Below, one piece after another: positions 6,194 to 41,264 of a DNA stretch of 64,000 nucleotides (its first letter is position 1; each line of letters begins with the position of its first letter). This DNA comes from an uncultured virus (IMG/VR IMGVR_UViG_3300007770_000003). Its lineage: Duplodnaviria > Heunggongvirae > Uroviricota > Caudoviricetes. Made by a program: the position numbers and the translations under genes. Under the pieces are notes generated by a model. That model had not been told where the DNA came from. It made no database searches and was given only the letters and a program-made list of their open reading frames with translations. The DNA is taken from the IMG/VR virus record IMGVR_UViG_3300007770_000003; one strand, 5' to 3'.

Positions 6194-6197
6194 TCAA

Positions 6198-12535: not shown

Positions 12536-12539
12536 GGGA

Positions 12540-14993: not shown

Positions 14994-15192
14994 AAACCTC
15001 CCGCGAGCGGTCCCGAGGCGACAAAACCCCAGGGGGCGCTCGCAGGCAGGGTAAACCTCCAGATTCCTTTGAGAATTGAGATCTTTGACAGCCCCGGAGG
15101 CGTCCACAACCTGTGGATAACCCTGTGCATAAGTAACCCGCTCGAAAACTACCCTCTCGATCCGCTATTTAAGCAGATCGAGAGAACCCAGG
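14994..15192 (+). promoter_or_regulatory. CRISPR leader 1
   Basis: Collinear homology with 33825-34024: GCGAGCGG..CAAAACCCC..CGCTCGC, TCCACAACCTGTGGATAACCCTGTGCATAA, CCGCTCGAAAAC and a terminal hairpin. Confidence 0.85.
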
Positions 15193-15465
15193 GTCTCAAT
15201 ACCTGCCGACCTCCTAGGAGGATGGCAAGACTCCCGGCCTGGGATCACCGAAGACGTGGTTAAGGAGGAGGTCTCAATACCTGCCGACCTCCTAGGAGGA
15301 TGGCAAGTGCTCGATGAGGTGGTGATCCCCGGGAATAGCACGATGGTCTCAATACCTGCCGACCTCCTAGGAGGATGGCAAGAGGTCCAAGCATCCCGGG
15401 ACTTCCCGCTCTTGACAGGCCGTCTCAATACCTGCCGACCTCCTAGGATGGGAAGGGAAGGCAAC
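15193..15465 (+). CRISPR. CRISPR array 1: three perfect 37-bp repeats plus one degenerate repeat, three spacers
   Basis: Repeat GTCTCAATACCTGCCGACCTCCTAGGAGGATGGCAAG at 15193, 15271 and 15346; degenerate copy at 15422. Spacers are 41, 38 and 39 bp. Confidence 0.97.
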
Positions 15466-15502
15466 GGAGATAGGGTCGATCGAGAGGCTATCTCCGTTGC
15501 CT
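15459..15502 (+). terminator. Hairpin at the trailer end of array 1
   Basis: AGGCAACGGAGATAG...CTATCTCCGTTGCCT is a 15-bp perfect inverted repeat. Confidence 0.55.
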
Positions 15503-15530
15503 GTTGACCTCTTCAGAGGATGGGAATAGC

Positions 15531-21684: not shown

Positions 21685-21786
21685 ATGTCGGCCCAGAATC
21701 GTATCAACGCGACGCTCGCGGAGACCGACCCGAACCTCTACATCGAGAACAACAACTCCTGGTCCTTCGGGATCTGGTACAAGTGA
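21685..21786 (+). CDS. Small protein, 33 aa (MSAQNRINATLAETDPNLYIENNNSWSFGIWYK)
   Basis: Below the track cutoff. AGGAGG RBS directly after a promoter motif; stop overlaps the next GTG. Confidence 0.6.
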   Translation: MSAQNRINATLAETDPNLYIENNNSWSFGIWYK

Positions 21787-22142
21787 GGGCTACGATGGAC
21801 CGTCAGGAATTCAACCGAGCTTTCCGCACCGCCAGGATCACCCTAGCGGTCTTCACCTCCGGGATGGACGGCAAAGGTCGCTACGCCCACATCTCCGGAC
21901 AGGAGCGGGCGAACGCGGAAGATCGGTGGATTCGGATGACCAACACGGACCACCCCGACCGGCCCGCCTACCTCGCCCTGGCTCTCCGCCAGAACGGCGA
22001 GCGAAAGAGCCTCGCCGCTTCCGCGGTCTTCGACACCGTGAAGTGTCGGGGCAAGCTGAAGGGCTGGTATCGCGATCTGGCGACGAAGAACCTCACCCGC
22101 CGAGGTCGGCTCACCCCGACCAGGGGGTGTCTGCTGCCCTGA
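21783..22142 (+). CDS. Hypothetical basic protein
   Basis: 119-aa ORF coupled to the upstream small ORF. Confidence 0.55.
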   Translation: MRATMDRQEFNRAFRTARITLAVFTSGMDGKGRYAHISGQERANAEDRWIRMTNTDHPDRPAYLALALRQNGERKSLAASAVFDTVKCRGKLKGWYRDLATKNLTRRGRLTPTRGCLLP

Positions 22143-22219
22143 GAAGACAACGAGAGGATGGCAAGAGCCAATCGGCCACGCGACCCAAATCAATACCTGC
22201 TTACCCTTGAGGATGACCC
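22129..22219 (+). CRISPR. Degenerate mini-array: repeat / ~21-nt spacer / repeat
   Basis: GAGGATGGCAAG (22154-22165) equals the 3' end of the array 1 repeat. TCAATACCTGCTTACCCTTGAGGATG (22190-22215) closely matches the array 2 repeat. Confidence 0.75.
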
Positions 22220-22420
22220 ATGAAGTACACGGAAGAGGAGCTGGACGCTGCCTGGGTAGCCGACCAGCTCGCGGACGCGAGACACGCAGAGCGTCAAGCC
22301 GCAGAAGGCCCCTTCTTCCCTGAGCGAGGGATCACCCGCGAGAGCCTGTTGGCCTACGCGGCTTACTGCCGAGCCCTCGCAGAGAACCCCAGGGAGACCC
22401 GAGAGGCTGCTCTCCGATAG
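22220..22420 (+). CDS. Small hypothetical protein
   Basis: 66 aa; its GAGG RBS lies inside the second mini-array repeat. Confidence 0.6.
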   Translation: MKYTEEELDAAWVADQLADARHAERQAAEGPFFPERGITRESLLAYAAYCRALAENPRETREAALR

Positions 22421-22457
22421 GGCCTCTATAGCGACACTCCGGTAGGAGACCGTCACT

Positions 22458-23786
22458 ATGCCCTTGACGACCGCTCGCCCTACCCGAATCGCAGCTCGGT
22501 GGCTCCAAGCGATCACGACCCCGCTCCCGGTTTCTTTCGAGACCACGGAGCGGGGTTTGATGACTCTGGCTGAGTTCATCAAGCATCGGAACCCCCAGGG
22601 CAAATTCCACGACGAGGACTCCTACGACTGGACCACGGAGTCCATGAACCGGAAGCTGATCCCGATCCGAGAGGACAAGGGCTTCCTCATCTCCAAGCCG
22701 CTCGGTAAGACCGGCTATCTCATCCACCAGGATGGTCGGCTGGTCGCCTTCATCCACCAGGGGACGATGTACTTCGGGGCTGGAGCCCCCATCCGAGATA
22801 TCCCCACCTCCTATTACGACTACCACACCCGCGATTTCGTCGATCTGGGGGTCCAACGGAAGAAGAGGGTGAAGTACATCGACGAACACGTCGATCTGGT
22901 CTACCAGATCGCTGCCAGCAACTACAGCGAGTATCCCGTTATCGTCCAGAGATTCCGAGTCAAAGGGGAGCCTTACGTGCTCCGGGCTCAGGCTGAGCCG
23001 GTGCCGGACAAGGGAATCAACCTGGGGCTGTTCAACGAAGCCGGTGAGAAGGTAGCCAGTGCTGAGAATGAATGGGGAGCTACCCTCCTCGTCGTCGCCC
23101 GGGAATACCGAGGGAAGGGGCTCGGTAAGATCATCGGGAAGGCTTGGTACCACTTCAACCCGAGTTTCCCCTCTGGCGGGTTCTCAGCGGCGGGGCAAGA
23201 CAACGCCGTCCGTTTATGGGCGGATCGAGTTCGCGAGTTTCTCTCCCGTGGCTGGTACTCCGAGCTGGTGAGATCGGGTCAGTTGACCCCAGCCCGAGTC
23301 AAGGAGATCCTCGCTGACCTCCCTGGAAAGAAGCGGAGACAGACGGAGGCCCCCCAGGGCGAGAAGAAGCAAGTCCTGTTCATGATTGACGACCCCACCT
23401 TTGTCATCTACGACCAGCGTTTCCTGTCCGAGCCTGATGAGAAGTACATCTATGCCTACGGCTTCTTCCGCGACGCCCCCGGCATCGGGGAATTTCTCTA
23501 CACGATCGACTACGACCGGACCTTTGATCGAGTAGCCCACGTCGTCGCCTTCCAGATGGCTCGGGACAACGGACTCGACCTCTACGTCGGAGAAGGCTAC
23601 GGCGACATGCTGGAGATGGACAAGGTCCCCGAAATCGAAGTGGAGGGCGACTACGCCCGCCTCACCCAGGACATGCTCCCCCTCGATCCACTAGGACGCC
23701 GGGAGAAGCTCCTCCGCAAGCGGGTTGACCCCTACGAGGAGAAGTACACCCGGCTACTTGAAATGGCTGAGGCCAAGTGGCGTTAA
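22458..23786 (+). CDS. Hypothetical protein with central GNAT-like acetyl-CoA-binding motif
   Basis: LLVVAREYRGKGLGKII followed by SGGFSAAG; N-terminal RIAARWLQA; preceded by TAG-N6-TATAG. Confidence 0.65.
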   Translation: MPLTTARPTRIAARWLQAITTPLPVSFETTERGLMTLAEFIKHRNPQGKFHDEDSYDWTTESMNRKLIPIREDKGFLISKPLGKTGYLIHQDGRLVAFIHQGTMYFGAGAPIRDIPTSYYDYHTRDFVDLGVQRKKRVKYIDEHVDLVYQIAASNYSEYPVIVQRFRVKGEPYVLRAQAEPVPDKGINLGLFNEAGEKVASAENEWGATLLVVAREYRGKGLGKIIGKAWYHFNPSFPSGGFSAAGQDNAVRLWADRVREFLSRGWYSELVRSGQLTPARVKEILADLPGKKRRQTEAPQGEKKQVLFMIDDPTFVIYDQRFLSEPDEKYIYAYGFFRDAPGIGEFLYTIDYDRTFDRVAHVVAFQMARDNGLDLYVGEGYGDMLEMDKVPEIEVEGDYARLTQDMLPLDPLGRREKLLRKRVDPYEEKYTRLLEMAEAKWR

Positions 23787-24535
23787 TAGTAAGTGTCGAA
23801 GCTCCGATCCCAAGGGAGCATGGTCTGATGAAGCCTCACGGGGTACTCCAGCTCCACCCGGACCAGGAATCGACCGCCCTGTGAGGTCACCTCGGTTGCC
23901 CGAATCTCAGGATCCCCGAGCACGAGAGCGACCCGCACCTCAGTGACGACCATCTGCTCCTCCCACTCCTCCGCGTCGTCATCCCAATGCTGCTCCTCCG
24001 TGTCTACGTCTACGAAGTCGTAGGCAGCATCCTGAGCCTTGTCAGCAGGATCCCGAAGACGCATGGTAAGAGCATCCTCCACCACGGATCCCCACTTCTG
24101 AGCCAGGAAGCTCTGCACTTCACGGCGATCGAAGGCATCCCCGAGGCTCGCCCGGGTATCCCAAGACTCCCGAGAGAACTGGCTGAGAAACTCCTTCTTC
24201 AGCTTCTTCACCTGAACGAAGAACGCCTTCTGCCCCGAGACCGAAGAGGGATACTCCACCTCCCAGGAGATCGTCCGGCTCCCATCAGAGGCTTCCCAGG
24301 AATTCGCCCGGTGGTTCATCCGGCCGGGCTTCCACTTAGAAACCCCCAACACCGCTTTCTCCACGAGACGCCGGGCGGTCTCCTCCATCAGGTCATGGAG
24401 TACCTCCACGATCTGCTCCGCTCCATCTTCCGGCTCATCAGCATCCAGAAGCGCACCCACATCGGTCAGAGACCGAAGCAACCCCCGCCCAGATGCCTGG
24501 AGCCACTTGTCTGCGACCTTCGCTGCCTGAGCCAT
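23783..24535 (-). CDS. Hypothetical protein with N-terminal KVADKWLQA peptide
   Basis: 250 aa; AGGAGG RBS; TAG-N6-TATAG upstream. Confidence 0.65.
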   Translation of the reverse strand: MAQAAKVADKWLQASGRGLLRSLTDVGALLDADEPEDGAEQIVEVLHDLMEETARRLVEKAVLGVSKWKPGRMNHRANSWEASDGSRTISWEVEYPSSVSGQKAFFVQVKKLKKEFLSQFSRESWDTRASLGDAFDRREVQSFLAQKWGSVVEDALTMRLRDPADKAQDAAYDFVDVDTEEQHWDDDAEEWEEQMVVTEVRVALVLGDPEIRATEVTSQGGRFLVRVELEYPVRLHQTMLPWDRSFDTYY

Positions 24536-24632
24536 CCTCAGCCTCCTAACCGCCCCTCGCTATAGTCGTCCTACCGAGCGCAGCGTCGGTAGCCCCAGCT
24601 CAGCCAGGGACTCACATCCCACAAAGGAACGT

Positions 24633-24866
24633 CTACTTGGCGGACACCGTCCGCTGGACCTTCCAGCGAGTGTTGCCCAGCCGACGCCAGTGAATCACGC
24701 CTTCCTCTCCCGAAGGGACACCGAAGTTCGCCACCATCGCCGGGTGACGGCTCATGTGCTCAACATGGTCCGCCGCCAGAGCGGCAGAGTCCCCGTCAAA
24801 CTCAAACCGCTCCAGCAACTCGCCGTCGCTGCTCCGGTAGATCTGGGCTTCATACTTGCGAGACAT
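24633..24866 (-). CDS. Small hypothetical protein
   Basis: AGGAGG RBS and a TCGTATA promoter motif upstream. Confidence 0.7.
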   Translation of the reverse strand: MSRKYEAQIYRSSDGELLERFEFDGDSAALAADHVEHMSRHPAMVANFGVPSGEEGVIHWRRLGNTRWKVQRTVSAK

Positions 24867-24888
24867 GTAGAACCTCCTGATGGAATTC

Positions 24889-24942
24889 TATACGACCCGC
24901 CCAGGAAAAGTAGCCCGGAAATTTCCCCTGCTCGCTCGTATG
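24889..24942. promoter_or_regulatory. Back-to-back pair of class I motifs
   Basis: GCTAC-N15-CGTATA on minus and GGAAA-N15-CGTATG on plus, between divergent genes. Confidence 0.7.
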
Positions 24943-24958
24943 CAACAACAGGAGACCA

Positions 24959-25705
24959 ATGGACCCCAGAATCGCCGCGTACCGAGAACGCCTTCAGAAC
25001 TATTACCAGATCTGGGTGGCCTGGATGCTCTCAGGGGACCGGGAGCACCTCTACTCTCTGAACGAGATGGAGATCCGCAGCCCCAGGTTCGATCCCCTGG
25101 TCCTCCCTCCAGTGGTCTGGATCTACCGGCCTCCTGACCAGGAGAGCGACGACTACAAAGCTTATGACTTCCTCTACCGCCGTCCGGTGACCGTTGGGAA
25201 CCACAAGTTTCACCGGTCAGGGCGGAACACGGTCAACCGGTCAACCCGACACGGGCGGATCAACTGGCACGCCACCGCGAAAGCCATCAGAGCAGCTCAA
25301 CGACTCCACAGCATCCGACAGAAGGTGTTCAGCAACGCTGTCCGAGAGGTGCAGGTCGAGATAGGGATCTGGGCACTCGCCCAGATCCCAGGGTGGGAAT
25401 TCAACGAGGACGGGGCCTTCAAGATCATCTGGTTTGAGGGCGACTACCTGATCTATTTCGAGTCGCTGGGAGGCGTGGGAGCCCACACCCCTGCTACCTC
25501 CACTCAACCTGACGCCTACGTCATCATGCGAGTCATGAGACAAACCGGCGGGGAAGACTACCTGACCCGGCGGCGGCTCGCTCAAGAACAGCTCGCCGTC
25601 ACCGCACCCGACCGGCTCAAGACCCTACTGAAGGAAATCCTCCGACTGCGGAATCGTCGAGCCCAGGCAATCGTAGACAAAGTCACCAGCACTCCGGCAT
25701 CCTAA
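24959..25705 (+). CDS. Hypothetical protein
   Basis: 248 aa; AGGAG RBS; promoter motif upstream. Confidence 0.7.
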   Translation: MDPRIAAYRERLQNYYQIWVAWMLSGDREHLYSLNEMEIRSPRFDPLVLPPVVWIYRPPDQESDDYKAYDFLYRRPVTVGNHKFHRSGRNTVNRSTRHGRINWHATAKAIRAAQRLHSIRQKVFSNAVREVQVEIGIWALAQIPGWEFNEDGAFKIIWFEGDYLIYFESLGGVGAHTPATSTQPDAYVIMRVMRQTGGEDYLTRRRLAQEQLAVTAPDRLKTLLKEILRLRNRRAQAIVDKVTSTPAS

Positions 25706-25712
25706 AAAGCAA

Positions 25713-25739
25713 GGTAACTTTTTGGGGGATGGTCGTATA
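25713..25739 (+). promoter_or_regulatory. Class I promoter-like motif
   Basis: GTAAC-N15-CGTATA. Confidence 0.75.
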
Positions 25740-25760
25740 GTCTCCTAACTGGAGGATCTG

Positions 25761-26276
25761 ATGGGTCGGCGGAAAAGTTCAACAGCTCTCCGTGTCTTTG
25801 ACACGGGAGTCCTGCACACCTCCCACGTCGGGGATCACCGAGTGGTGGTCGCGGATCCCGACCCGGCGATCTCCATGATCGCTTTTGGAGACGAGGGCCG
25901 CCTCTGGTCCGTCGAGGTCCAGGTCGCACGGCACACCCTCGGTCCCCGCAGGGGGTCTCCGATCTACGACCCCAGCGTCTTGCTCATCCGGGTCCGCAAC
26001 ACCAAGGGGACTTTCCCCCTGGAGGAGTTGAAGCGGGTGATCCCGTTCGACGACGACAACACCACGTTTGCGAGCGGGTACAACCACCTCCACGACTCCG
26101 ACGCGATCCGGATCCGCCTCTCCTGGCAGGGCGTTCGGCACTTCCTCTGGAATCTCGGGAAGACCCTGAAGGAGGCTACCGTCCGCGTGGGCAGGGGCGA
26201 GATCTTCGTGGAAGACGGGAAGTGGATCGACGACATGAGCCAGGAGTTGTCCGCCCTCCCCGCCACCCGATTCTGA
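25761..26276 (+). CDS. Hypothetical protein
   Basis: 171 aa; GGAGG RBS; promoter motif upstream. Confidence 0.7.
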   Translation: MGRRKSSTALRVFDTGVLHTSHVGDHRVVVADPDPAISMIAFGDEGRLWSVEVQVARHTLGPRRGSPIYDPSVLLIRVRNTKGTFPLEELKRVIPFDDDNTTFASGYNHLHDSDAIRIRLSWQGVRHFLWNLGKTLKEATVRVGRGEIFVEDGKWIDDMSQELSALPATRF

Positions 26277-26306
26277 GAGGCTCCGGGGTCTGTTCGGTTA
26301 GGAGGG

Positions 26307-26606
26307 CTACTGGTCCTGGGTAGCCAACCACCGCTGAGCGACCCGACCCGCGGACTCTGATTGAGACTGCTCCAGCCAGCGATCCATCTTTGCAGACCAA
26401 CCGTGCATCAGATCACGAATCTCGGCTTCATGGCGTTCAATCTCCTCCCGAAGCTTCTTTATCTCCGCCGCGACCCGCTCATGCTCCCTCTTTGCAGCCG
26501 AGAGAATCGGACTCTGCCGCATGAGCTGACGCACCGAGAGACCTGGGTACCGGAGCTGCTCGGAACGAATCAAGGGAGCCACTTGGAGTCGATTCGGATC
26601 GTACAT
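26307..26606 (-). CDS. Coiled-coil protein with C-terminal RVAQRWL peptide
   Basis: 99 aa; AGGAGG RBS; TAG-N6-TATAC upstream. Confidence 0.65.
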   Translation of the reverse strand: MYDPNRLQVAPLIRSEQLRYPGLSVRQLMRQSPILSAAKREHERVAAEIKKLREEIERHEAEIRDLMHGWSAKMDRWLEQSQSESAGRVAQRWLATQDQ

Positions 26607-26667
26607 GGGAGCCTCCTGCCTTCAGCGACGTATAGGCTAACTAGCCAGAGAGGCTCGTAAGACCACC

Positions 26668-26862
26668 ATGAGCGACAAAACAGATCCCCGAGAGGATGTT
26701 CTCTCCGGACCCGCCGAGATCTCCCCCCGAGAGGTCCGCGAAATGACCCGCCCAGACTGGTCCCGGGAGTGCCTCGTCTGCGGGAACAAGCCCGTCATCC
26801 CCCTGACCGACATGTGCCCGGCCTGCGCCTTCGGGGAAGCCGAAGCCCTCACCGAAACCTGA
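26668..26862 (+). CDS. Small zinc-ribbon protein
   Basis: CLVC...CPAC motif, 64 aa. Confidence 0.6.
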   Translation: MSDKTDPREDVLSGPAEISPREVREMTRPDWSRECLVCGNKPVIPLTDMCPACAFGEAEALTET

Positions 26863-26867
26863 CGAGC

Positions 26868-27152
26868 CTACCCTGGGAGACCCATCAACACCGAGACCTC
26901 ACCGAAAGTCTCACGAATCAAAGCCTTGGCTTTCGCCTCCCACTCAGGCCCCTCCCCCTTCATCGTGAAGTCCTGATAGAGGTTCTCCCCCCCGGTTCCC
27001 ATGATGTAGACGCAGGTGCGGGGCTCGTAGTGCCAACCCCGCTCCGTGTCGTCCGACACGGGAACGGTGTTCGCCCCGATGCACCACGTCCAAGCCCGGG
27101 GATCGAAATCACCCGAGCGATAGTCATCAACCAACTCGTTCCAGGTAGACAT
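26868..27152 (-). CDS. Hypothetical protein, probably leaderless
   Basis: ATG 27152 (MSTWNELVDD) lies 7 nt after a TCGTATA motif. Confidence 0.6.
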   Translation of the reverse strand: MSTWNELVDDYRSGDFDPRAWTWCIGANTVPVSDDTERGWHYEPRTCVYIMGTGGENLYQDFTMKGEGPEWEAKAKALIRETFGEVSVLMGLPG

Positions 27153-27159
27153 GACCCTG

Positions 27160-27214
27160 TATACGACCAGCACCCCGGAAATTCCCAGGTAATTTCCTGC
27201 GGGAGGGTCGTATA
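27160..27214. promoter_or_regulatory. Back-to-back pair of class I motifs; the plus copy faces the cas3 unit
   Basis: GGAAT-N15-CGTATA on minus and GTAAT-N15-CGTATA on plus. Confidence 0.75.
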
Positions 27215-27233
27215 CGACGACGGAGGTTGAATC

Positions 27234-27551
27234 ATGAAGCGATTCCCGATCACCGTCACCGTCGATCCCACCCGCCCCAGCGTGGTGCTCTTTACGACCC
27301 CCGAGAGTGAGGGGGAGATGGGTATCGGGGCCGCCGCGACGGAAGAGCAATACGACCACATCACGGACGAGCTGGCGAGCAAGCTCCACGAGGATTGGGA
27401 TCTGGGGCGGCACGGAGATGAGATCGTCATCTCCTTTCCCAACGGGGAAACTCAGACTCGCACGCTGGGCGAGGTCTTTGATGACTCCTGGGTGGATGAC
27501 TTCTACGCCCGTCAGGAGCAGAGCCCCGAAGAGTTTTTCGAGGCGTGCTGA
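27234..27551 (+). CDS. Small acidic protein overlapping the cas3 start
   Basis: 105 aa; GGAGG RBS; promoter motif upstream; 7-nt overlap with cas3. Confidence 0.7.
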   Translation: MKRFPITVTVDPTRPSVVLFTTPESEGEMGIGAAATEEQYDHITDELASKLHEDWDLGRHGDEIVISFPNGETQTRTLGEVFDDSWVDDFYARQEQSPEEFFEAC

Positions 27552-29953
27552 GTCCTGTCGAAGACTATCTGAGTCGGCGTCCACTCCTCGCCAAGTGGCG
27601 ACGAGAACGAGAGGACTTCAGCCCCGGACGGGGGTTCAACTTCGTTTGGCACTACAAGGAAGTCCTGTGGGCCCTCGGAGTGCTGTTCACCGAGCCCTAT
27701 TGGGCTGAGAGGGAGTATCCCTCCCTCGCCCATGCTGTCCACGCCAGGATGGAGTTGCCGTGCTCCTTCCGAGACTTCAAAGCGTGGACGCTCCTCTCCC
27801 TGCTCGGTCACGACTTCGGGAAGGCAGGGGGAGAGTTTCAAGAGATGCTGGTCGGGCTGGAGCTGGCCTACAAGAGCTTCAGGGGCCCTGAGGGCGGGTT
27901 CAAGCTTCCAGAAGAGGAGCGGCGGTACCTCCGCCTGAAAAGACGGATGAGCGGCTACAGGAAGCACGTACAGGCATACCGGCACGAGCTACTGTCCGCC
28001 CTCATGATGAATCAAGAGCCCCTCCGGTCCTGGGTGGTTCAAATCGCGGGTGGAGAGCAAGGCTTCGCCTACGCCCTGGCCGGGGCGTTCGGGCATCACC
28101 TCAAGTGCCACCGGCCGATCAGCACCCAAGAGATCCTGGCCCGCGGGAGATACAAGACGCTCCCGGTCTACCAGGACAAGCTCGCCCGTGACATGAACAC
28201 GGTCCTCCGCAGCTTGCCTGAAGGATTCCGAGACCTCGCGGTGCCGGCCTTCCCCGATCTCCCACACCTGCCGGGCGGGAACCATTTCACGACCCCCAGG
28301 CGACTGGAGCAGGGGCTCCAGTCGATATCAGTAAACGACCTCTTCTATCGGATCGAGGATGACCCGATCTCCGGGGCGATCAAGTGGCTGACGATCCTGG
28401 CGGATACCCTGGGATCAATCCACGCCTCCGGGGATGATCGGTCCTATCGGAAAACGAAAGACGCCATCCTGAGCGTCATTCGCGAGACCTGGGCCACGCG
28501 AGAAGTGGACTTCGGAGCCATCCTCCGACAGAGGCTAGGCCCAGAGGGGAGCCTGACCCCCACTCAGAAAAACTGTCTCCGACCAGGGAGAGACCTCTTC
28601 CTCCCCTGGGCGACAGGGGTCGGGAAGACCCTGGGGGCTCTGCAATGGGGCTCGGGTCACCCGAAAAACCCCATGATCTTCTGCACCCCCACGATGGATA
28701 TCGGAACCCACCACTTCCTCGACTACGCCCGAAAAGGGATGGACACCCTACGGCACTCCCGAGCAGGGGAGGTGCTGCTCAAATACACCCCCACCCCTGA
28801 AGACAACTCCCAAGAAGAAGCGGACGCCAGGAGGGAAGCTCGGGACACCCTCCACCGAATTCGACAGGGATCACGAGACCTCACCTTCGCCACCATCGAT
28901 CAGGTGCTCGGGCTCATCGCCTTCCGACGCTCCGCGATTGCCTACCTCCCCTGGATCTTGAAGAGCCAGATCGTCTTCGATGAAGTGGAGAACTATGACC
29001 CCGTCACCCGGGCATGGCTGATTCGATTTCTCAACTGGTTCCCCCAGAACCGCAAGGCGTTTCTCTCAGCCACCTTCCCCGAATACCTGCTCGACCGACT
29101 CCGGCCCACCCTGCGAGCCCCCACCATCATGGGATCATCTACGAACCCTGACCGGGCCTCCAACAAACCGCGATACCGAATCCACATCCTCAAAGGTCCG
29201 AAAGAGGCCTTCCAGCAATTCCACGCCGGGACCCTCTGGTTCACCAACACCGTCGCCCGCTGCCAGCAGGTCGGGATCACGGCACCCGACGCCCTCGTCT
29301 ACCACAGCCGCTTCCGAGACCGGGATCGCAGAGGGATCAGCGATAGGATCAAACAGGATCTCCTCAACAAAAGACGGGTCACGACGACCCAGGTTGCCGA
29401 GGTAGCTCGGGATATATCAGCTCTCTCCTTGCTTTCTGAGATTTCCACACCCAGCTCCATGACGCAGAGGCTCGGTCGTTCTAATCGGCACGACTTCACG
29501 GGACCCGTGGACGTCTTTTTCTACATGCCCCAGGCAGACAACGGGCTCCCCTACGTCGCTCACGACGACTGGCTCCCCACATTCAACCTCTGGAGAGGCT
29601 GGATAGGACAATTCGACGGGCTCGCTGTCTCCCAAGACGAACTCAACGAAGCACTGCTGGATTTCTACAGAGATCCAAGGAACTTCCCACGTCAGCGCGA
29701 CGCATTTTCCAGTCTCCTGGTGACCTCAAATCGACGGATCCGAGACGCCGACTACACCACCCGAGTCCTGCTCCCGGAAGACGCCCAGAAGCTACCGGAT
29801 CACGAGGAAACCAAACACCTCACCATCCCCATTCTGCTCCGACCAGACCAGAAGACCTACCTGGAAACCCTCGGCCGGACGCACAGAAAAATTCTGGTCG
29901 TCGATTCCTCTATTGGAACCTACGATATCAGGCTTGGTTTTCTACCTTCCTGA
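27545..29953 (+). CDS. cas3: Cas3 HD nuclease-helicase
   Basis: HD domain: GHDFGK..FQ, RHE, GHH, LADTLGS. SF2 motifs: ATGVGKT, FDEVE, SAT, FTNTV, YHSRF, QRLGRSNR. Confidence 0.92.
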   Translation: MLSPVEDYLSRRPLLAKWRREREDFSPGRGFNFVWHYKEVLWALGVLFTEPYWAEREYPSLAHAVHARMELPCSFRDFKAWTLLSLLGHDFGKAGGEFQEMLVGLELAYKSFRGPEGGFKLPEEERRYLRLKRRMSGYRKHVQAYRHELLSALMMNQEPLRSWVVQIAGGEQGFAYALAGAFGHHLKCHRPISTQEILARGRYKTLPVYQDKLARDMNTVLRSLPEGFRDLAVPAFPDLPHLPGGNHFTTPRRLEQGLQSISVNDLFYRIEDDPISGAIKWLTILADTLGSIHASGDDRSYRKTKDAILSVIRETWATREVDFGAILRQRLGPEGSLTPTQKNCLRPGRDLFLPWATGVGKTLGALQWGSGHPKNPMIFCTPTMDIGTHHFLDYARKGMDTLRHSRAGEVLLKYTPTPEDNSQEEADARREARDTLHRIRQGSRDLTFATIDQVLGLIAFRRSAIAYLPWILKSQIVFDEVENYDPVTRAWLIRFLNWFPQNRKAFLSATFPEYLLDRLRPTLRAPTIMGSSTNPDRASNKPRYRIHILKGPKEAFQQFHAGTLWFTNTVARCQQVGITAPDALVYHSRFRDRDRRGISDRIKQDLLNKRRVTTTQVAEVARDISALSLLSEISTPSSMTQRLGRSNRHDFTGPVDVFFYMPQADNGLPYVAHDDWLPTFNLWRGWIGQFDGLAVSQDELNEALLDFYRDPRNFPRQRDAFSSLLVTSNRRIRDADYTTRVLLPEDAQKLPDHEETKHLTIPILLRPDQKTYLETLGRTHRKILVVDSSIGTYDIRLGFLPS

Positions 29954-30029
29954 AAAAGTTTCCCTACGAGGCTACCCATAAAACAGAAATTACGGTATCA
30001 ACAGGGGCACCCAGAGAGGACACCTCTTG

Positions 30030-31712
30030 ATGAACCGATGGCTCCTGAAGCTCTCCGAGCTTTCGTCCACCCCTCTTCGCCTTGGGCTCCACGGACTCGC
30101 CCGACTGCTGAGTCAGTGCGAAGGCAACCCCATGTACCCCGCCGTCCGCCAGTCGGAGGATCTCCAGTGGTCGTTCCTGGACGATGAGACCCTGGACCTC
30201 CGCTTCAAGGATATCGACAGCCTCAACCCTCTGATCGCGGACATGGTGGGCGACATGTCCACGGGCCTCCGCGTCCCCCCGGGAGCCGAGACGAACCGGG
30301 AAAACCCCGGCATCTACATGACGATCCGAGCCCACCTGGGGCTCGGGTACTTCCAGGGGCGAAAGGGACCTACCCGATCTGTCTCCCTGACCCCAGGGAC
30401 CACCCCGGCAGCCAAGCAACAGAAGGCGGCCCTCCTCGCCGCTCACGTCCAGAAGTTCGGAGAGCCGATCCGCAAGGCGGACTGCGTCAAGAGGGCAGAC
30501 GGCACCCCCTACGAGCTGGCCGTAACCCCCCACACGACGGGGAAGCCCGCGGTCCTCAAGTGGAAGGACACCAAGCGAAAGGGCCGGATCCCGGTCGATC
30601 GATACACCGGATCGACCTATTCCCACCCCATCCTGGGCCAGTGGAACAAGGAAGCCCTGAAGTTGACCCTTCAGGAATACTTCCTGACTTCGTTCTCCTG
30701 CCTCGCCTACGTCTGGACAATGAGCGACTGCGACGCCGTAGGGATCGGGCTCGATCTCCCAACGTTCTCCCAGGCTGAAGAGGCGTTCCGCCACTGGAAC
30801 GGAGACCAGGGCAAGGTCCATCGGATCGCAGGAGCCCGAGAAGCTGTCTGCTGGACGATGGCGGCAGTGATGAACCTGCCGCGGCAGCCCTACCCCTACC
30901 TCTACAAGACCGATGGGGGGAAGGTCGCGGCGGGGTCCTTCCTGCCCCACGCCGCGAAGGTGGAGAACAACCAGATCTACCAGATGCTCCGGGACCTCTT
31001 GGAGTTCAGCGCAGGGGCGGGAAACGACATGCTCCGCTCTATGAAGAGCACCCCCATCCGGACACTGTCCCCCACACGGAATGACACGCTCCACGACGTG
31101 ATTTTCAACAACCTTCGGGTCGGCCTGCCCTGGTTCATGGGCGTCGCTGACGGCATGACCAACGACCGGTACCGCTACAGCCCCAAGATGAAGTCCTTCG
31201 TGGGCTTCAACGAACGCGACCGCGCCCGCATCCAGCAGGTCGGTCACCACCTGTTCCCCGACAACGAGGAAGGACTCATGCAGCGAATCATCGCCGCGAA
31301 GATGAAGACCCTGTACTACCAGCTCGCCCAGCACTACCGGAAGAAGTTCGGCACGAAGCAGAGGATGTGGGAGCGGGCGAAGCAGTTCGCCGTAGCCGTC
31401 CACCTCAACCGGGCTCACAACAAGGCCGGCATCCTCGCCGCCATCAACGCCATCTCCAACGAGGCTGGCGGGAGCCTCCGCCTCACCGGGGAAGAGTTCG
31501 ACTGGCTGATCGCCGCCCTCGACCGCAACCCCACCGAGATCCAGCAGCTCCTCATCCTGTCCTGCGACGTGGACTTCCGCTCCCCGGCGATGCGGAAGGC
31601 GGACGACGCCAAGAGGGAGAAGGCCCGCCTCCTCAAGGAGCGAGAGGCCGGTCGCCTCTGCCTCGACTGCGGGGAAGATCTGGACAGCCACCAGAACAGC
31701 GAAGCCGCCTGA
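30030..31712 (+). CDS. cas8: Cas8 large subunit (Cmx8/MYXAN-like)
   Basis: Sits between cas3 and cas7. N-terminal LRLGLHGLARLL resembles the xRxGLxGL start of Cmx8; helical C-terminus. Confidence 0.8.
   Translation: MNRWLLKLSELSSTPLRLGLHGLARLLSQCEGNPMYPAVRQSEDLQWSFLDDETLDLRFKDIDSLNPLIADMVGDMSTGLRVPPGAETNRENPGIYMTIRAHLGLGYFQGRKGPTRSVSLTPGTTPAAKQQKAALLAAHVQKFGEPIRKADCVKRADGTPYELAVTPHTTGKPAVLKWKDTKRKGRIPVDRYTGSTYSHPILGQWNKEALKLTLQEYFLTSFSCLAYVWTMSDCDAVGIGLDLPTFSQAEEAFRHWNGDQGKVHRIAGAREAVCWTMAAVMNLPRQPYPYLYKTDGGKVAAGSFLPHAAKVENNQIYQMLRDLLEFSAGAGNDMLRSMKSTPIRTLSPTRNDTLHDVIFNNLRVGLPWFMGVADGMTNDRYRYSPKMKSFVGFNERDRARIQQVGHHLFPDNEEGLMQRIIAAKMKTLYYQLAQHYRKKFGTKQRMWERAKQFAVAVHLNRAHNKAGILAAINAISNEAGGSLRLTGEEFDWLIAALDRNPTEIQQLLILSCDVDFRSPAMRKADDAKREKARLLKEREAGRLCLDCGEDLDSHQNSEAA
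31278..31712 (+). CDS. Putative internally translated Cas11 small subunit
   Basis: In-frame ATG inside cas8 preceded by GAGGAAGGA; would give a 144-aa helical product. Internal Cas11 starts are established for type I-B/C/D. Confidence 0.4.
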   Translation: MQRIIAAKMKTLYYQLAQHYRKKFGTKQRMWERAKQFAVAVHLNRAHNKAGILAAINAISNEAGGSLRLTGEEFDWLIAALDRNPTEIQQLLILSCDVDFRSPAMRKADDAKREKARLLKEREAGRLCLDCGEDLDSHQNSEAA

Positions 31713-31745
31713 CAACCAACCAGCAACCAACCAGCAACCAACCAG
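31713..31745. repeat. Tandem repeat (CAACCAACCAG)x3
   Basis: Three exact 11-bp units fill most of the cas8-cas7 gap. Confidence 0.95.
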
Positions 31746-31753
31746 AGACCACA

Positions 31754-32647
31754 ATGTACCTGACTCTCCTCGCCATCTCTGAGCCCCTGCTCGCCTCCAA
31801 CAACCGCGGTGAGAACCGCGGCAACCTCCAGACCGTCCAGACGATCACCTGCCGGAACCAGACCCGGACTGTCCTCTCCGGCCCGGCGATCAAGTTCGCC
31901 GTCCGCCACTCCATGCAGGACGGGGGCTGCCGTATGTGGCGGAACATCGTCCCCGTCACCGATCTGAACCCCGTGGGGTTCGTCTACGGCGAAAACCGGG
32001 CGAGCACCATGAAGGAAGCCATCCCGCCCACCCCCGAGGGGTTCGACGACGGCATCTTCGGCTGGATGATCTCCAGCAAGGGTTCCTCCGAGCACGCCAT
32101 GAAGGCCAAGGGCCTCGTGGAGGTGTCGGACGCCATCTCCTGCTCCGCCTTCGACAACAACATCGCCTTCTGCCAGGGGCACAAGGCCGGGGCGACCGTC
32201 TACGAGAACGACGAGGACGACGGCGGCAACCGGAAGAAGAAGGACACCACCCCGAAGCCCTCCCTCGCCCCCTTCCACTTTGAGCGGCACTGGACCCGCT
32301 ACGCCTTCACCATGACCTTCAACCTCGCCCGCCTCAAGGGCATGGGCGACGCCGTGGAGGCGGTCATCAACTCCCTCCGCTGCCTCCAGGTCGGGGGAGC
32401 CCACAGCTCCCGGTCGGCTTCCATGATCTGCAACACGATCGCCTGGAGGTTCCACAAGTCCCCCGGACAGGGAGGGATGGGCCTGATCCTCGACCAGCAG
32501 CCCGACACCCCCGTGGACCTCTCCGCCCTGGAGGCCCGCGCAGCCAACCTGGGGATCTCCTACAACGTCGCCGGCATGGGTCTGGACCAGACCGTCCACG
32601 ACGGGATCGCCTCGATCCTCTCCGAGATCCGCGGGAAGATGGGATGA
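31754..32647 (+). CDS. cas7: Cas7 (DevR-like)
   Basis: ASNNRGENRGNLQTVQ, VLSGPAIKFAVR, DDGIFGWM, VEVSDAIS and ERHWTRY, as in DevR/Cas7 MYXAN. Start refined to ATG 31754. Confidence 0.92.
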   Translation: MYLTLLAISEPLLASNNRGENRGNLQTVQTITCRNQTRTVLSGPAIKFAVRHSMQDGGCRMWRNIVPVTDLNPVGFVYGENRASTMKEAIPPTPEGFDDGIFGWMISSKGSSEHAMKAKGLVEVSDAISCSAFDNNIAFCQGHKAGATVYENDEDDGGNRKKKDTTPKPSLAPFHFERHWTRYAFTMTFNLARLKGMGDAVEAVINSLRCLQVGGAHSSRSASMICNTIAWRFHKSPGQGGMGLILDQQPDTPVDLSALEARAANLGISYNVAGMGLDQTVHDGIASILSEIRGKMG

Positions 32648-33237
32648 TTACCCTCAGGATCGACTCCATCTCCGGACACTTCCGGATTCCGGGCCAGATC
32701 CCCCTCCTCGCCCTGGTCCCCTCCTACCCCTTCTGCCCCCCCTCCACCATGCAGGGGTGCCTGGAAGCCTTCACAGCCTCCCGGAAGGGCTCCTTCCGAG
32801 GTGAGTTCCGCTACGGGGCGTTCCGCCCCCCAGGCGGATGGGGGACCCTCCTCCGTCAGGCCCAGATCTGGGCGAGCAAGAAGAAGGACCAGCAGAGGGC
32901 CCCGAACGACTACGAAGTCATGAGGCCCGTCCACGTCGAGAAGTGGTACGACCTCTCCCACTGCGTCCAGGTCCGCGGCCCCTGGGAAGACAAGATCCGA
33001 GAGACCCTGGAGAAGGGCCGAGACGACTTCTTCGGCGTCCTCTATCTCGGAGAGAGCCAGGATCTCATCACCTGGATCGGAGAGACCGACGACCCCCTGG
33101 ACAAGGTCCAGTGGCTCGTCCCCGGAAGCCAGATGCAGCTCCCTGTCAAGACCCTCTACGGCTACCGGAACTACGGACCCACCCTCAAAGGGTTCGACCT
33201 CCGGATCACCAAGAACCCCGCATGGATGACCCGATGA
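32644..33237 (+). CDS. cas5: Cas5 (DevS-like)
   Basis: HFRIP, SYPFCPPSTMQGCL and LYLGESQDLI motifs; ATGA-coupled to cas7. Confidence 0.9.
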   Translation: MITLRIDSISGHFRIPGQIPLLALVPSYPFCPPSTMQGCLEAFTASRKGSFRGEFRYGAFRPPGGWGTLLRQAQIWASKKKDQQRAPNDYEVMRPVHVEKWYDLSHCVQVRGPWEDKIRETLEKGRDDFFGVLYLGESQDLITWIGETDDPLDKVQWLVPGSQMQLPVKTLYGYRNYGPTLKGFDLRITKNPAWMTR

Positions 33238-33824
33238 CCGCTTACTCCTACGCGATCGAGTCCCGGGCGAAGCTGCCCCAGGACAACGGCTACATCATCA
33301 TGTCCGCCCTCTGCCGGAAGTTCCCCTTCCTCCACGCCCGGGGGCACTACCAGATCGCCCCCGTCCGCGGAACCAGGAGGGACCACGGCAGGTCCATCCA
33401 GCTCGATCACAACTCCGTCCTCCACATCCGGGGCCTCCCGGCTGAGGCCGCGGAGGCGATCGGCAGCTCATGGATCCTCGCCAGCGGACAGATGATCGGG
33501 CTGGGGAAGGCCGTCCCCGTCACCCTCACCCCCTCCCCGCACCTCGTCTCGCGACAGGTCGTGTTCGACAACATCGTCAACGAGGCCAAGTTTCGGGAGG
33601 AAGTCCAGCAGATCGTGGGCCCCGAGGTCCAGGTCTCCACCGGACGACGCCGCGGGCTCCACTGCAAGGGCAGGGTCTTCCTGGGCTACTCCGTCACCCT
33701 CGCCGGGCTCACCCCCGAACAGTCCCTCCACATCCAGAACACCGGGATCGGACGGTTCCGGTCAATGGGAGCCGGTGTCTTCTACCCAGGCTCCGGCCGG
33801 ATGAGGCTCGTCGCGAATAGCTAG
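33234..33824 (+). CDS. cas6: Cas6 (Cmx6-like) crRNA endoribonuclease
   Basis: LPQDNGY..SAL near the N-terminus and a Gly-rich loop QNTGIGRFRSMGAGVF at the C-terminus. Start refined to ATG 33234. Confidence 0.9.
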   Translation: MTAYSYAIESRAKLPQDNGYIIMSALCRKFPFLHARGHYQIAPVRGTRRDHGRSIQLDHNSVLHIRGLPAEAAEAIGSSWILASGQMIGLGKAVPVTLTPSPHLVSRQVVFDNIVNEAKFREEVQQIVGPEVQVSTGRRRGLHCKGRVFLGYSVTLAGLTPEQSLHIQNTGIGRFRSMGAGVFYPGSGRMRLVANS

Positions 33825-34024
33825 CCCACCCCAAGCGAGCGGACCAGAGACGGCAAAACCCCCAGGCCCGCTCGCGTGAACCTGAAGACCCCGAAAATCT
33901 TCAGAAACCCCGTTCATTGAAAGCCCCAGAGTCTTCCACAACCTGTGGATAACCCTGTGCATAATCGAACCGCTCGAAAACCACTCTCTCGATCCGCTAT
34001 TTAAGCGGATCGAGAGAGGAAAGG
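33825..34024 (+). promoter_or_regulatory. CRISPR leader 2
   Basis: Homologous to leader 1; lies between cas6 and the first repeat. Confidence 0.85.
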
Positions 34025-34439
34025 GTCTCAATACCTGCCTACCCCTAGAGGGATGGCAACACCTCTCCACCGTCTATGAGAAGAACGCCAACCCCGAGTC
34101 TCAATACCTGCCTACCCCTAGAGGGATGGCAACACTTCTACTTTGACGCTGCTTCGGATGCCCTGGATGGACGTCTCAATACCTGCCTACCCCTAGAGGG
34201 ATGGCAACGCAAACACGGCTTTCAGCGATGGGAGCACGGACGTGACGATGTCTCAATACCTGCCTACCCCTAGAGGGATGGCAACGCCCAGCTCCGTCAT
34301 CTTGCCGATGAGGGCAGCCGCTCTGTCTCAATACCTGCCTACCCCTAGAGGGATGGCAACAAACAGACAGGGGAGTGGGCCGACATGAACATTGGAGGTC
34401 TCAATACCTGCCTACCTCTTCGGAGGATGGAAAGGCAAC
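34025..34439 (+). CRISPR. CRISPR array 2: five perfect 36-bp repeats plus one degenerate repeat, five spacers
   Basis: Repeat GTCTCAATACCTGCCTACCCCTAGAGGGATGGCAAC at 34025, 34098, 34173, 34250 and 34325; degenerate copy at 34398. Spacers are 37, 39, 41, 39 and 37 bp. Confidence 0.98.
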
Positions 34440-34518: not shown

Positions 34519-36177
34519 ATGGCCCAGAAATTCGGCCGGAAGACCCTTCCTCCGGGGTACACCCCGGATCAGTTCACCTACCAGGGGAGGCCGGCGGCGA
34601 CCGATGGTGACTTCGGCTCGGACGTGGGTCTCGCGGACATGGGCTGCGTGAACCAGTTCGGGGAGGCGAACAACAGCAAGGCGTATCACTGTGGTGTCGC
34701 CAAGACGCCGGACGGCGTCTGGTGGATGTACGCGGAGTGGGGTCGGATCAAGCCGGGCCCCTCGTGGAACAACGGTCGCTGGACGGGGAACTTTCAGGAC
34801 TTCCAGTTTGAGCGTCACGCCAGCGAGTCGGCGGCTCGGGCTGCCTTCACGAAGAAGGCGGCGAGCAAGAACGTGAAGCGGGGTGTGTTCAAGACGATCG
34901 GCGGCGTGAAGATGCTCGTCGCGAAGCCTGGGAAGGACTGCTACGTGGTTCAGGATCTCGCGACCCGGGAGAAGGGTCTCCCTGACGCCGCGACCATCAA
35001 GGATTCCACGGGTGTGACGCCTACGGCGACGGCGACTGCTGCTCCGACCAAGAAGCCTCGGAAGGCGGCGGGTCGGAGGTTCCACGCGGAGGAGATCCGG
35101 CTGGCTCAGGATCTCGTGGGCGGCACCAAGACCTACACGCGGGCTCTGTCGGCTGCGGCCGGGGTTCGGCCGACGATGGCGGCGATCACCCGGGTCCGGG
35201 ATCAGTTCATCCCGGCGGCGATGGAGCGGATCAAGCAGGTGCCGAGTCTGACGGACCAGCTCCGGGACACGGACCTCCAGGCGATCACCCGGACGGTGGC
35301 GGCTCTGGTTCCGCGGCCCATTCCGCGGACGGGTCAGGACCCGGCGGACTTCCTCCTCTCGGGGAACACGATCCTCCAGCTTCAGCAAGACCTGGACGCC
35401 TTTGAGGCGTCTCTTGCGAACGAGGATTTCTCGACGGCGGCTCCGGTCTCCACGGTCAACCCCTGGACGGTCTTGAACGCCAACGTGCGATACCTGCCGA
35501 CCTCTTCGCCTGAGGGCAAGTGGGTCGCGAGCAAGTTCCCGGCGATGACCAACCACCGCCACAGCTACATCCGGGGGAAGATGGTGATCAAGTCCATCTT
35601 CCGGGTGGATCGCCCCGACCGAGACCGCCTCTTTGAGGCGGAGGTCCGCAAGGTGGCGGCTCGTCGTCGGGGTCGGTTCTCGCTGAAGGCGAACCTTCAG
35701 CCGAAGCGGACGGACCTCAGCGGGGCTGGTGTCGGTGACCTGTACGCTCAGGCCAACGTGATCGTGGGGATCCACGGCACCCGCCCGGTGAACATCGCCC
35801 CCATCATGGGGAGCAACTTCCGTCTCCCCCGCTCTCTGCCGGGTGCTCAGATCACGGGGGCCAACTTCGGTCACGGGATCTATTGGGCGACGGACTGGAA
35901 GAAGAGCTACGGCTACTGCGGTCGAGGCTACTGGTCTTCGGGGGGCCAGGGCGGAATCAACAGCCGGGGCTGCTTCATGTTCCTCAGTGACGTGATCATG
36001 GGGAAGGCGTACCGGGCTCCTCGGACGGGCTCTTGGGGCAAGCCCCCGGGCGACACCGACTCGGTCTTCGGCGTCGGTGGCGATTCGGGTCATCGGCTTC
36101 AGAACGACGAACACGTCATCTTCGATCCGAACTACCAGCGGATCCGTTACCTCGTGGAGTTCGCGTGGCTGTCCTGA
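34519..36177 (+). CDS. WGR-domain PARP-family ADP-ribosyltransferase
   Basis: NNSKAY..EWGRI (WGR domain), helical middle region, catalytic IHGTR, GANFGHGIYWA..KSYGY and LQNDEHVIF (H-Y-E triad). Confidence 0.9.
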   Translation: MAQKFGRKTLPPGYTPDQFTYQGRPAATDGDFGSDVGLADMGCVNQFGEANNSKAYHCGVAKTPDGVWWMYAEWGRIKPGPSWNNGRWTGNFQDFQFERHASESAARAAFTKKAASKNVKRGVFKTIGGVKMLVAKPGKDCYVVQDLATREKGLPDAATIKDSTGVTPTATATAAPTKKPRKAAGRRFHAEEIRLAQDLVGGTKTYTRALSAAAGVRPTMAAITRVRDQFIPAAMERIKQVPSLTDQLRDTDLQAITRTVAALVPRPIPRTGQDPADFLLSGNTILQLQQDLDAFEASLANEDFSTAAPVSTVNPWTVLNANVRYLPTSSPEGKWVASKFPAMTNHRHSYIRGKMVIKSIFRVDRPDRDRLFEAEVRKVAARRRGRFSLKANLQPKRTDLSGAGVGDLYAQANVIVGIHGTRPVNIAPIMGSNFRLPRSLPGAQITGANFGHGIYWATDWKKSYGYCGRGYWSSGGQGGINSRGCFMFLSDVIMGKAYRAPRTGSWGKPPGDTDSVFGVGGDSGHRLQNDEHVIFDPNYQRIRYLVEFAWLS

Positions 36178-40421: not shown

Positions 40422-41264
40422 GTGGAACCAAGAGACTCCTTAGAGTTCTTCCTTCGGGAAGCCGGCCGGTACAAGCTCCTGACTCGCGAGGAAGAAGTCG
40501 TCCTCGCGAAGCGGATAAAACATGGGAGTCCGGCGGACGCCGATCTCGCTCGGCAATCGATGATCCAAGCTAATCTCCGGCTGGTGGTGTCGATCGCGAA
40601 GTCGGAGCACAAGAAGTTCAGCTATCTTCAGCTCCCGGATCTGGTTCAAGAGGGCATGATCGGGCTCGCCCGCGGGGTTGAGAAGTTCGATTACAAGAGA
40701 GGCTTCAAGTTCTCCACCTACGCCTCATGGTGGATTCGTCAGGCGATTCACCGGTACTGCCAGTCCGAGCATTCGGTGAGGCTCCCCGTCTACCAGCATG
40801 AGAACATCACCAAGTTGAACCGGGCCAGGGCTCACCTCTACCAGAAGAACCACCAGGAGCCTTCCCATCAGGAAGTGGCGGAATACCTCGGGTGGCCCGT
40901 CACGAAAGTCGAGAAGACCCACAGGATCAATCGCCGGGTGGTCTCTCTTGACGCCCCAATGGATGAGCGGACGGATCAATGCCTGGGAGACACCCTGGCG
41001 GACAACCGCCCCTTCGCTGAAGACGTACTGGAGGAAGCCTCTGTCAACGAGAGGTTGAATCGGGTCATGTTGGAAGCCTTGGATGAGCGTGAGATTCAAA
41101 TCCTGGTCCAACGGTACGGGTTGGACCGGGCTGAGCCTCGCAGCTTGGATGCCATCGGCAGCGGCCTGAAAGATCCCGTGACCCGAGAGCGGGTCAGGCA
41201 GATTGAGATGAGAGCCCGGAAGAGGCTTCGCCGCCACATCCGACGGGATGAGGTGCTGGGGTGA
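40422..41264 (+). CDS. RNA polymerase sigma-70 family factor (group 1/2-like, regions 1.2-4)
   Basis: [55 protein letters not shown] and [10 protein letters not shown]. Confidence 0.97.

Follow-up and report, generated by a model that had tools for sequence, protein, structure and literature searches.

A divergent MYXAN-type I-B CRISPR-Cas module encoded by a huge phage

The closest characterised system to the one considered here is the type I-B CRISPR system of Synechocystis sp. PCC 6714 (I-MYXAN/Cmx8; PDB 8H67), in which, according to the portions of PMC11096372 that deal with it, the small subunit Cas11 has an internal start. Other precedents come from huge phages. Passages of PMC7162821 state that nearly all of the huge-phage systems are without Cas1, Cas2 and Cas4, and give precedent for phage CRISPR directed at other phages; its supplement, as excerpted, has six phages with Cas3, five of them without Cas1/2 and one of these complete with cas5-8, so that a module without adaptation genes is an already known kind. 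Such huge-phage systems are also reviewed in part of PMC11656645. In this report we describe a cas3-cas8-cas7-cas5-cas6 operon, with its leader and array, in a 64,000-nucleotide (nt) stretch of an uncultured virus of the Caudoviricetes (IMG/VR record IMGVR_UViG_3300007770_000003); the whole stretch is called the window. The module is a real, phage-encoded, divergent branch of MYXAN-type I-B, and it is probably functional.

The phage module resembles that of Synechocystis 6714 in its Cas7, Cas6 and Cas3 families, in the fold of Cas8 and in a probable internal Cas11 start. Both also have a 36-nt repeat with the same 5' layout, a short stem and an 8-nt 3' handle. However, the two have only 25-30% identity in Cas3, Cas7 and Cas6, and Cas8 and Cas5 give no significant BLAST match. 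The cas6 gene is last in the phage operon and first in 6714, the phage has no cas4/1 or cas2, its spacers are 37-42 nt rather than about 35 nt, and its system is phage-borne. Compared with the huge-phage type I systems in the available passages of PMC7162821, it likewise has a full interference set, no adaptation genes, short arrays and a genome of more than 200 kb; the table there says only 'type I', and those passages are without the long degenerate tails or the tRNA-repeat chimeras described below. A preliminary description of this DNA had stressed that a full Cascade plus Cas3 is a more complete set than an array alone. The set is indeed present, but it was already known for huge phages without Cas1/2 (PMC7162821, the relevant entries of Table S1), and the remark that CRISPR systems of large phages often are without adaptation genes agrees with the passages cited above. 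A tblastn search of 50,697 phage records gave no match to the phage Cas7. A 2022 survey of virus-encoded systems in Cell, from the group behind the huge-phage compilation, is said to have tables that may already include the MYXAN subtype or the present phage.

Type I is indicated by a Cas3 that carries both an HD nuclease and a superfamily 2 (SF2) helicase, and by cas5, cas6, cas7 and a large subunit that adjoin an array (Table 1). A type I-B CRISPR-associated transposon is not indicated, since Cas3 is present and the window open reading frames (ORFs) scanned gave no transposase match. When Cas3 is aligned with its relatives, the HD residues H36, H89, D90, H147, H184, H185 and D287 and the helicase residues G358/G360/K361/T362, D479/E480 and Q641/R642/G644/R645/R648 are invariant in all 11 proteins; they cover the HD ligands and, in the helicase, Walker A, the DE of Walker B, and also motif VI. 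The nearest annotated Cas3 relatives among plasmids are cyanobacterial (25-27% identity).

The earlier typing as I-B, MYXAN/DevRS-like, is supported by hidden Markov model (HMM), profile and fold matches. The best or near-best NCBIfam models are DevR, Cmx5 and Cmx6, with every NCBIfam score below its cut-off (Cas6, for example, has 92.2 bits on TIGR02807 Cas6/Cmx6, where the cut-off is 98.85). A profile of the Cas7 family finds only two solved I-B Cas7 sequences, the better being that of 8h67 (E 1.7e-18). The Cas7 tree that had been proposed as a check has 16 rows and splits 14 metagenomic sequences, with full support, from two cyanobacterial references, although its branches are long and these two are the only references.

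The large subunit has no match in Pfam, NCBIfam or PADLOC, and it is a Cmx8 (Cas8b)-family protein by modelled fold and via its relatives, not by a direct HMM match. There are 64 representatives of these relatives at E up to 0.001, and 15 of the 38 aligned family members match the Cas8a1/Csx13 MYXAN model. The predicted structure has a mean confidence (pLDDT) of 90.5, and its top three fold matches, with nothing else at E up to 0.001, are the I-B Cas8 chains 8fcj_I (E 1.7e-10), 8h67_L and 8ip0_J. The family profile matches the NIES-970 large subunit at E 1.6e-09 and that of 6714 at only 0.029. Cas11 is probably translated from an internal start in cas8, as in Synechocystis 6714: a ribosome-site-like GAGGAAGGA precedes an in-frame ATG at Cas8 residue 418 (position 31278), most family rows have a Met close to this column, the model has a helical bundle at residues 414-540, and relatives called as separate proteins of 102-148 amino acids start at this position. 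The common C-terminus of Cas8 and Cas11 (31650-31712) is a short tail with a CxxC, of low model confidence and missing from most relatives.

Two other loci, L056 and L057, have the same order, cas3-8-7-5-6-leader-array, with related repeats, and the gene in the position of cas5 in L056-L059 is 29-43% identical to the phage cas5. In L057 the operon lies at 5834-12900 with a 10-spacer array, on a 27-kb contig of different composition, and its flanks carry Abi_C and Mrr-like nuclease genes that resemble defence-island cargo and not phage genes; the clade is therefore not demonstrated to be phage-only. A motif scan of GTDB representatives found no Cas7 relative (0 of 17 candidate stretches), and the protein atlas had no match at 0.9 or above.

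Table 1. Positions of the CRISPR-Cas module and of related elements (window coordinates unless L061 is given)
Feature	Position	Strand	Remarks
Array 1 leader	15003..15192	+	Same TTWTNCACA pair as array 2 leader, at 15112-15120 and 15124-15132
Array 1	15193..15464	+	Four 37-nt repeats (last degenerate), three spacers of 38-41 nt
Hairpin-forming spacer-like stretch and one degenerate repeat	15465..15526	+	Behind array 1; repeat at about 15495-15526
Leaderless two-repeat degenerate unit	22130..22216	+	24-nt spacer; between two small genes
Promoter-like motif sites in window	15531, 21636, 25713, 27188, 34467	+	Nine further sites in G003/G005
Promoter-like motif GGTAAnTTY-N10-13-CGTATA, phage-type	27188..27215	+	Ahead of operon running into cas3
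ORF of 105 amino acids (aa), function not assigned	27234..27551	+	Stop overlaps cas3 start; no NCBIfam match
cas3, HD nuclease and SF2 helicase, 802 aa	27545..29953	+	PADLOC Cas3b 7e-82, 274 bits
Divergent cas8, Cmx8/MYXAN-type large subunit, 561 aa	30027..31712	+	By fold and relatives
Probable cas11 small subunit, 144 aa	31278..31712	+	Predicted internal start in cas8
cas7, DevR family, 297 aa	31754..32647	+	Pfam DevR above cut-off
cas5, 197 aa	32644..33237	+	PADLOC Cas5b 3.9e-06; weak Cmx5/DevS match
cas6, Cmx6-like, 196 aa	33234..33824	+	Pfam Cas6 102 bits
Array 2 leader	33835..34024	+	TTWTNCACA matches on minus strand at 33944-33952 and 33956-33964
Array 2	34025..34439	+	Six 36-nt repeats (last degenerate), five spacers of 37-41 nt
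tRNA-like elements with oversized middle parts	L061 12489-12654, 13518-13665, 15517-15597	-	Two carry the repeat

The operon is carried by a huge phage and not by a chimera. A unitig of 12,357 nt covers positions 21698-34054 without a break, and the next one, of about equal depth, starts at 34332. Depth is flat over the cas locus in four marine runs (X1-X4) of two studies, the best of which may be the window's own source, and an IMG/VR contig matches the operon at 100% identity. The genes around the locus include rIIA/rIIB, a primase, DNA polymerase A and an endolysin, and the replication block is syntenic, with 31-48% identity, to that of LR745208.1, a phage of 485 kb which has neither Cas1 nor a Cas3 of the present clade. 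The arrangement given earlier, from cas3 through cas6 to leader and array among phage genes (27545-34439), was confirmed and lies in one unitig up to the array. Completeness by CheckV is 9-16% for pieces of 41-84 kb, which by extrapolation gives a genome of about 0.5 Mb.

A scan with the repeat gave further records, G003/G004 and G005, that have the same leader and repeat, in addition to G002, the linked record that covers positions 1-34353 of the window. One end of G005 overlaps an end of G002 by 13 nt, inside a hairpin, and this junction is spanned by two independent contigs with about 10 kb on each side (99.97-100% identity); G003 in turn overlaps G005 with 99.84% identity over 35,099 nt. 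The idea that G003/G005 belong to a second, competing phage was dropped because the bridging contigs show one genome. Window and linked DNA together are about 199 kb, some 135 kb of it beyond the window; no rightward extension past the window end was obtained.

Ahead of the operon is a motif that we predict to act as a phage promoter. The pattern, derived from repeats in the window and afterwards searched in G003 and G005, has five matches in the window versus none in 20 shuffles, and it recurs six times in each of the two records, mostly just upstream of a ribosome site and start codon. The phage also encodes a group-1-like sigma-70 factor (40422-41264), which may read this motif.

The second array, placed about 12 kb before cas3 in the preliminary description, is there, ending 12.1 kb upstream of the gene. 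The repeat of array 2 has a short stem followed by exactly 8 nt, with the layout and orientation of the Synechocystis 6714 repeat, and the stem of array 1 has a compensatory change relative to it. Stem and handle were assigned by inspection and by comparison with the 6714 and NIES-970 repeats; the minimum-energy fold extends the stem into the handle. Transcription of the arrays from the minus strand, an idea that came from the ATTGAGAC end and a lower folding energy, was rejected because three features agree on the plus strand: the leader position, the degenerate repeats at the array ends and the layout of the 6714 repeat. A third array with a leader is found on the opposite strand, about 127 kb upstream of cas3. 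This array, the degenerate repeat behind array 1 and the two-repeat unit at 22130-22216 do not figure in the preliminary description.

The leaders of arrays 1 and 2 have 87% identity across 130 nt, and in array 2 a 15-bp hairpin adjoins the first repeat. All three leaders have a common invariant block of 29 nt that holds two TTWTNCACA matches, and these six leader sites are the sole matches in the linked DNA scanned. We take TTWTNCACA to be the DnaA-box consensus. The leaders of L056 and L057 have no such match; like the phage leaders, they contain CGAGCG / CGCTCG as an inverted pair, together with a TTGACA-like block. A literature search, made at record level with few subscription papers, found no description of DnaA boxes in CRISPR leaders.

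The absence of cas1, cas2 and cas4 from the 64 kb, as first described, holds up: Cas1, Cas2 and Cas4 were each found in none of the four records G002-G005, and none of the 125 ORFs of at least 70 aa in window positions 34300-64000 matched them. Cas1 was not found in G006 and G007 either. Altogether the three genes were not found in about 199 kb of linked phage DNA, and some 60% of the estimated 0.5-Mb genome is outside the DNA examined. An indication of where new spacers might enter comes from array 3. The first two spacers of G003/G004 are not those of G005, and the third repeat is canonical in G005 and degenerate in G003. That contigs so nearly identical carry different spacers at the leader end suggests that acquisition in trans is under way; read most simply, this leader is receiving new spacers. 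It is plausible on this indirect basis that Cas1-Cas2 is borrowed from elsewhere, most likely from the host. The first proposal, that of borrowed host Cas1-Cas2, gains indirect support from the array 3 differences, to be set against the unseen part of the genome and the GTDB representatives, among which no array with the phage repeat appeared. Plasmid type IV-A3 systems, as summarised in part of PMC11656645, are similar in that they have no Cas1-Cas2 of their own, keep the leader and gain spacers; however, type IV is without Cas3, which the phage system has.

As was stated originally, the eight spacers of arrays 1 and 2 are all distinct and none matches the window beyond chance (best ungapped 23-25 of 37-41 positions; longest exact common word 10-12 nt). 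The further suggestion that they are plausible as coding sequence carries no weight, since an open frame occurs in 8 of 8 spacers versus 7.99 of 8 shuffled ones. A search for protospacers and a protospacer adjacent motif (PAM) in phages, plasmids and linked DNA yielded neither, blastn of these spacers against phages and plasmids giving only chance-level matches. The PAM of the MYXAN/Cmx8 type is ATG-type. An exact 20-mer of the newest array 3 spacer, the one canonical spacer of 12 covered by the scan of viral contigs (the scan of the metagenome collection used Cas7), had no match there beyond its own array. The array 3 spacer G3_s2 agrees exactly over 17 nt with window positions 55808-55824, a match that was rejected, as it has no extension and is below 66% over the spacer.

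Array 3 in G003/G004 has two canonical spacers followed by 25 degenerate repeats over about 1.7 kb. This tail was seen only in these records, which are tied to the window by the overlap of G003 with G005 and by tail sequence among the loose ends in runs X2 and X4. The decay depends on position: conservation is 40-56% at repeat positions 1-3 and 88-100% at positions 5 and 7-9, the latter not being part of the search pattern (positions 10-19 served to find the units and are excluded). A CC..GG directly before the 8-nt handle is kept in 16 of the 25 units versus 0.18 in shuffles, with a pattern that was written after seeing the data. The median length of the spacer-like parts, measured in 19 of 25, is 26 nt, and their excess of structure is not significant (p = 0.054). 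Matches of their seed plus PAM in the phage DNA number 27 versus a null mean of 22.7, and 19 of these 27 stem from one mis-cut 9-nt spacer. The small unit at 22.1 kb has no target in the 199 kb of phage DNA, and its second repeat ends at the ribosome site of the following gene.

A further form of the repeat is found in a cluster of more than ten tRNAs in G003, where the anticodon arm of two tRNA-like elements is replaced by the CRISPR repeat. Both start like a tRNA, with an acceptor strand and a D-arm-like part, and the repeat copy follows at the same point of the frame. The longer chimera (L061 12654-12489) goes on to a T arm, then the matching acceptor strand and a final CCA, and phage tRNAs match its 3' end (E 9e-5); the other is truncated. 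A third element (L061 13665-13518) shares this frame and holds an anticodon-like arm instead of the repeat; over 60 nt it has 80% identity with the longer chimera. ARAGORN and Rfam call none of the three, and a search for homologues of the frame in viral contigs found only the phage's own copy. Two other structured non-coding stretches in this cluster have no Rfam match: one (L061 13870-14030, minus strand) presumably resembles the L11-binding domain of 23S rRNA with insertions, and one (L061 15195-15329, minus strand) lies between tRNAs and has two GAGAGGAC copies.

The degenerate units have some likeness to the CreA/CreR CRISPR RNA-like (crRNA-like) RNAs, which, according to sections of 10.1101/2023.03.03.530964, also have degenerate repeats, short spacers and a kept processing site. 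Most of those consist of two repeats, lie close to cas promoters and have a seed target that can be seen, with only 12 longer cases, whereas the phage has 25 units behind an array that bears a leader and is about 127 kb away from cas3, with no visible target. Racr solitary repeat units, in the passages of PMC10651486 that describe them, are similar as isolated repeat copies in phage genomes that Cas6 could bind and cut. However, Racrs copy the host repeat to block the host system, whereas the present repeat belongs to the phage itself and occurs twice within tRNA-like frames; the word 'tRNA' is absent from the main text of PMC10651486. In the literature search mentioned above, neither tRNA-like RNAs with CRISPR repeats nor degenerate phage arrays were described. 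The repeat-derived RNAs are the surprising part of the system; the third array, the long tail and the chimeras lie outside the window and in one phage lineage.

Taking everything together, the gene set and order, the phage context, the conserved catalytic residues, three leader-bearing arrays and the repeat geometry are demonstrated. Our explanation, which as a whole we consider fairly probable, is that a huge phage uses an intact, strongly diverged Cmx8/MYXAN-type I-B module against competing mobile elements in the infected cell. By analogy with Synechocystis 6714, the operon would be read from the phage promoter and Cas6 would cut the repeat at the base of the short stem, which would leave an 8-nt 5' handle. 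Cas5, Cas7, Cas8 and the internally translated Cas11 would assemble Cascade on guides of 37-42 nt, and PAM recognition would recruit Cas3 for DNA degradation. Going by precedent only, the targets would be competing phages or other mobile elements. The population variation suggests that new spacers may enter at the array 3 leader via Cas1-Cas2(-Cas4) whose genes lie elsewhere, most likely in the host. Cas6 would probably also cut the degenerate units into short crRNA-like RNAs that may bind Cascade subunits without cleavage, this last step being the weakest.

Several points weigh against this explanation. INPHARED, PLSDB, 115 loci and the linked phage DNA, as far as these were searched, yielded neither a protospacer nor a PAM for any of the 12 canonical spacers, so the class of target is assumed. 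Arrays 1 and 2 are identical between the window and G002 in all seven comparable spacers and may be static. At array 3, addition cannot be separated from replacement because G005 ends inside its third repeat. No GTDB representative has an array with the phage repeat (34 single matches are at about the estimated chance level), and consequently no Cas1-Cas2 donor is identified. Finally, Cas3 has DEVE where most relatives have DEVH or similar, and its motif V is changed.

The departures in Cas3 could be taken to mean that the module is mainly an RNA-guided repressor or decoy factory, in which Cascade, carrying short guides from the degenerate units, would silence host or phage promoters or sequester host Cas proteins, with Cas3 weakened or of secondary importance. 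The degenerate units, 25 behind array 3 plus others, do outnumber the 10-12 canonical spacers, their median of 26 nt is short, 16 of the 25 keep the processing geometry, and short-guide repression and Racr decoys are already known. However, Cas3 retains every HD metal ligand and the core residues of its helicase, one other relative in the Cas3 alignment also has DEVE, and the degenerate spacers have no seed/PAM enrichment in the phage DNA, so we regard this alternative as unlikely. Similarly unlikely, and compatible with the other parts of our explanation, is that the phage's own adaptation genes lie in the unseen part of its genome and that the system is complete, with nothing borrowed. Only 199 kb of an estimated 0.5 Mb has been examined, no cellular genome was found with the phage repeat or the Cas7 clade, and phages with Cas1/Cas2 exist (F21, among the entries of PMC7162821 Table S1); against it, cas1/2/4 were found neither next to the three leaders nor in the records examined, L057 has no cas1/2/4-like ORF between its flanking cargo and the 10-spacer array (14 flanking ORFs scanned), and nearly all phage systems in the excerpts of PMC7162821 are without such genes. 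That the contig is chimeric or cellular is scarcely credible. Although sigma-70, asparagine synthase and methyltransferase genes are also within the window and neither a capsid nor a terminase gene was identified there, the unbroken unitigs, the flat depth in four runs, the identical IMG/VR contig, the phage-gene neighbours with their synteny to a 485-kb phage, and the phage promoter-like motif directly upstream of the operon all argue for a phage, as the preliminary description had assumed.

The tail, the mini-array and the tRNA-like chimeras could simply be neutral debris of array decay and recombination, in which case only the canonical arrays matter. Decay at the trailer end of arrays is common, no targets were found, the structure excess stops at p = 0.054, one chimera is truncated, and no homologue was found outside the present phage. 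We see this as a serious possibility, short of an even chance, because the decay is position-dependent with stem and handle kept in 16 of 25 units, and two repeat copies lie at the same point of a tRNA-like frame. A more doubtful proposal is that the repeat serves as a general-purpose RNA part: Cas6 would free about 25 short non-cleaving guides or decoys from the array 3 tail, cut the mRNA with the 22.1-kb unit and process the tRNA-shaped RNAs, which would be natural mimics of crRNA on a tRNA scaffold, while the leader boxes would tie spacer uptake or array transcription to host DnaA.

The window has several other genes of interest. A full-length asparagine synthase B (19429-21060, minus strand), above the NCBIfam cut-off, lies amid phage genes. 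Right after array 2, a protein of 552 aa (34519-36177, plus strand) has a PARP catalytic domain at its C-terminus (Pfam 50.6 bits), and its gene has its own copy of the promoter-like motif at 34467. Three N6/N4 DNA methyltransferase genes form one block (47337-53088, plus strand), with paralogous pieces in G003/G005 and LR745208.1. Two tandem tRNAs with a CUA anticodon, of the amber-suppressor type, are at 58032-58186 (minus strand). Genome-wide TAG recoding, an idea that these tRNAs raised, is unsupported, as TAG closes 9 of 66 long ORFs in the linked DNA and the read-through length is ordinary; selected genes may nevertheless be read through.

In conclusion, the core system adds a deep, HMM-invisible I-B branch with about 64 Cas8 representatives that are mutually less than 50% identical, a branch that would escape the standard typing tools or get no class from them and that is a source of new Cascade-Cas3 tools. 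Should the degenerate tail and the chimeras undergo processing and loading, crRNA-like regulators would extend from single units to a repertoire, and a tRNA frame would be a carrier of a CRISPR repeat, for which the literature search found no description. The differing leader-end spacers enable a direct test of in-trans acquisition by a Cas3-bearing phage system.

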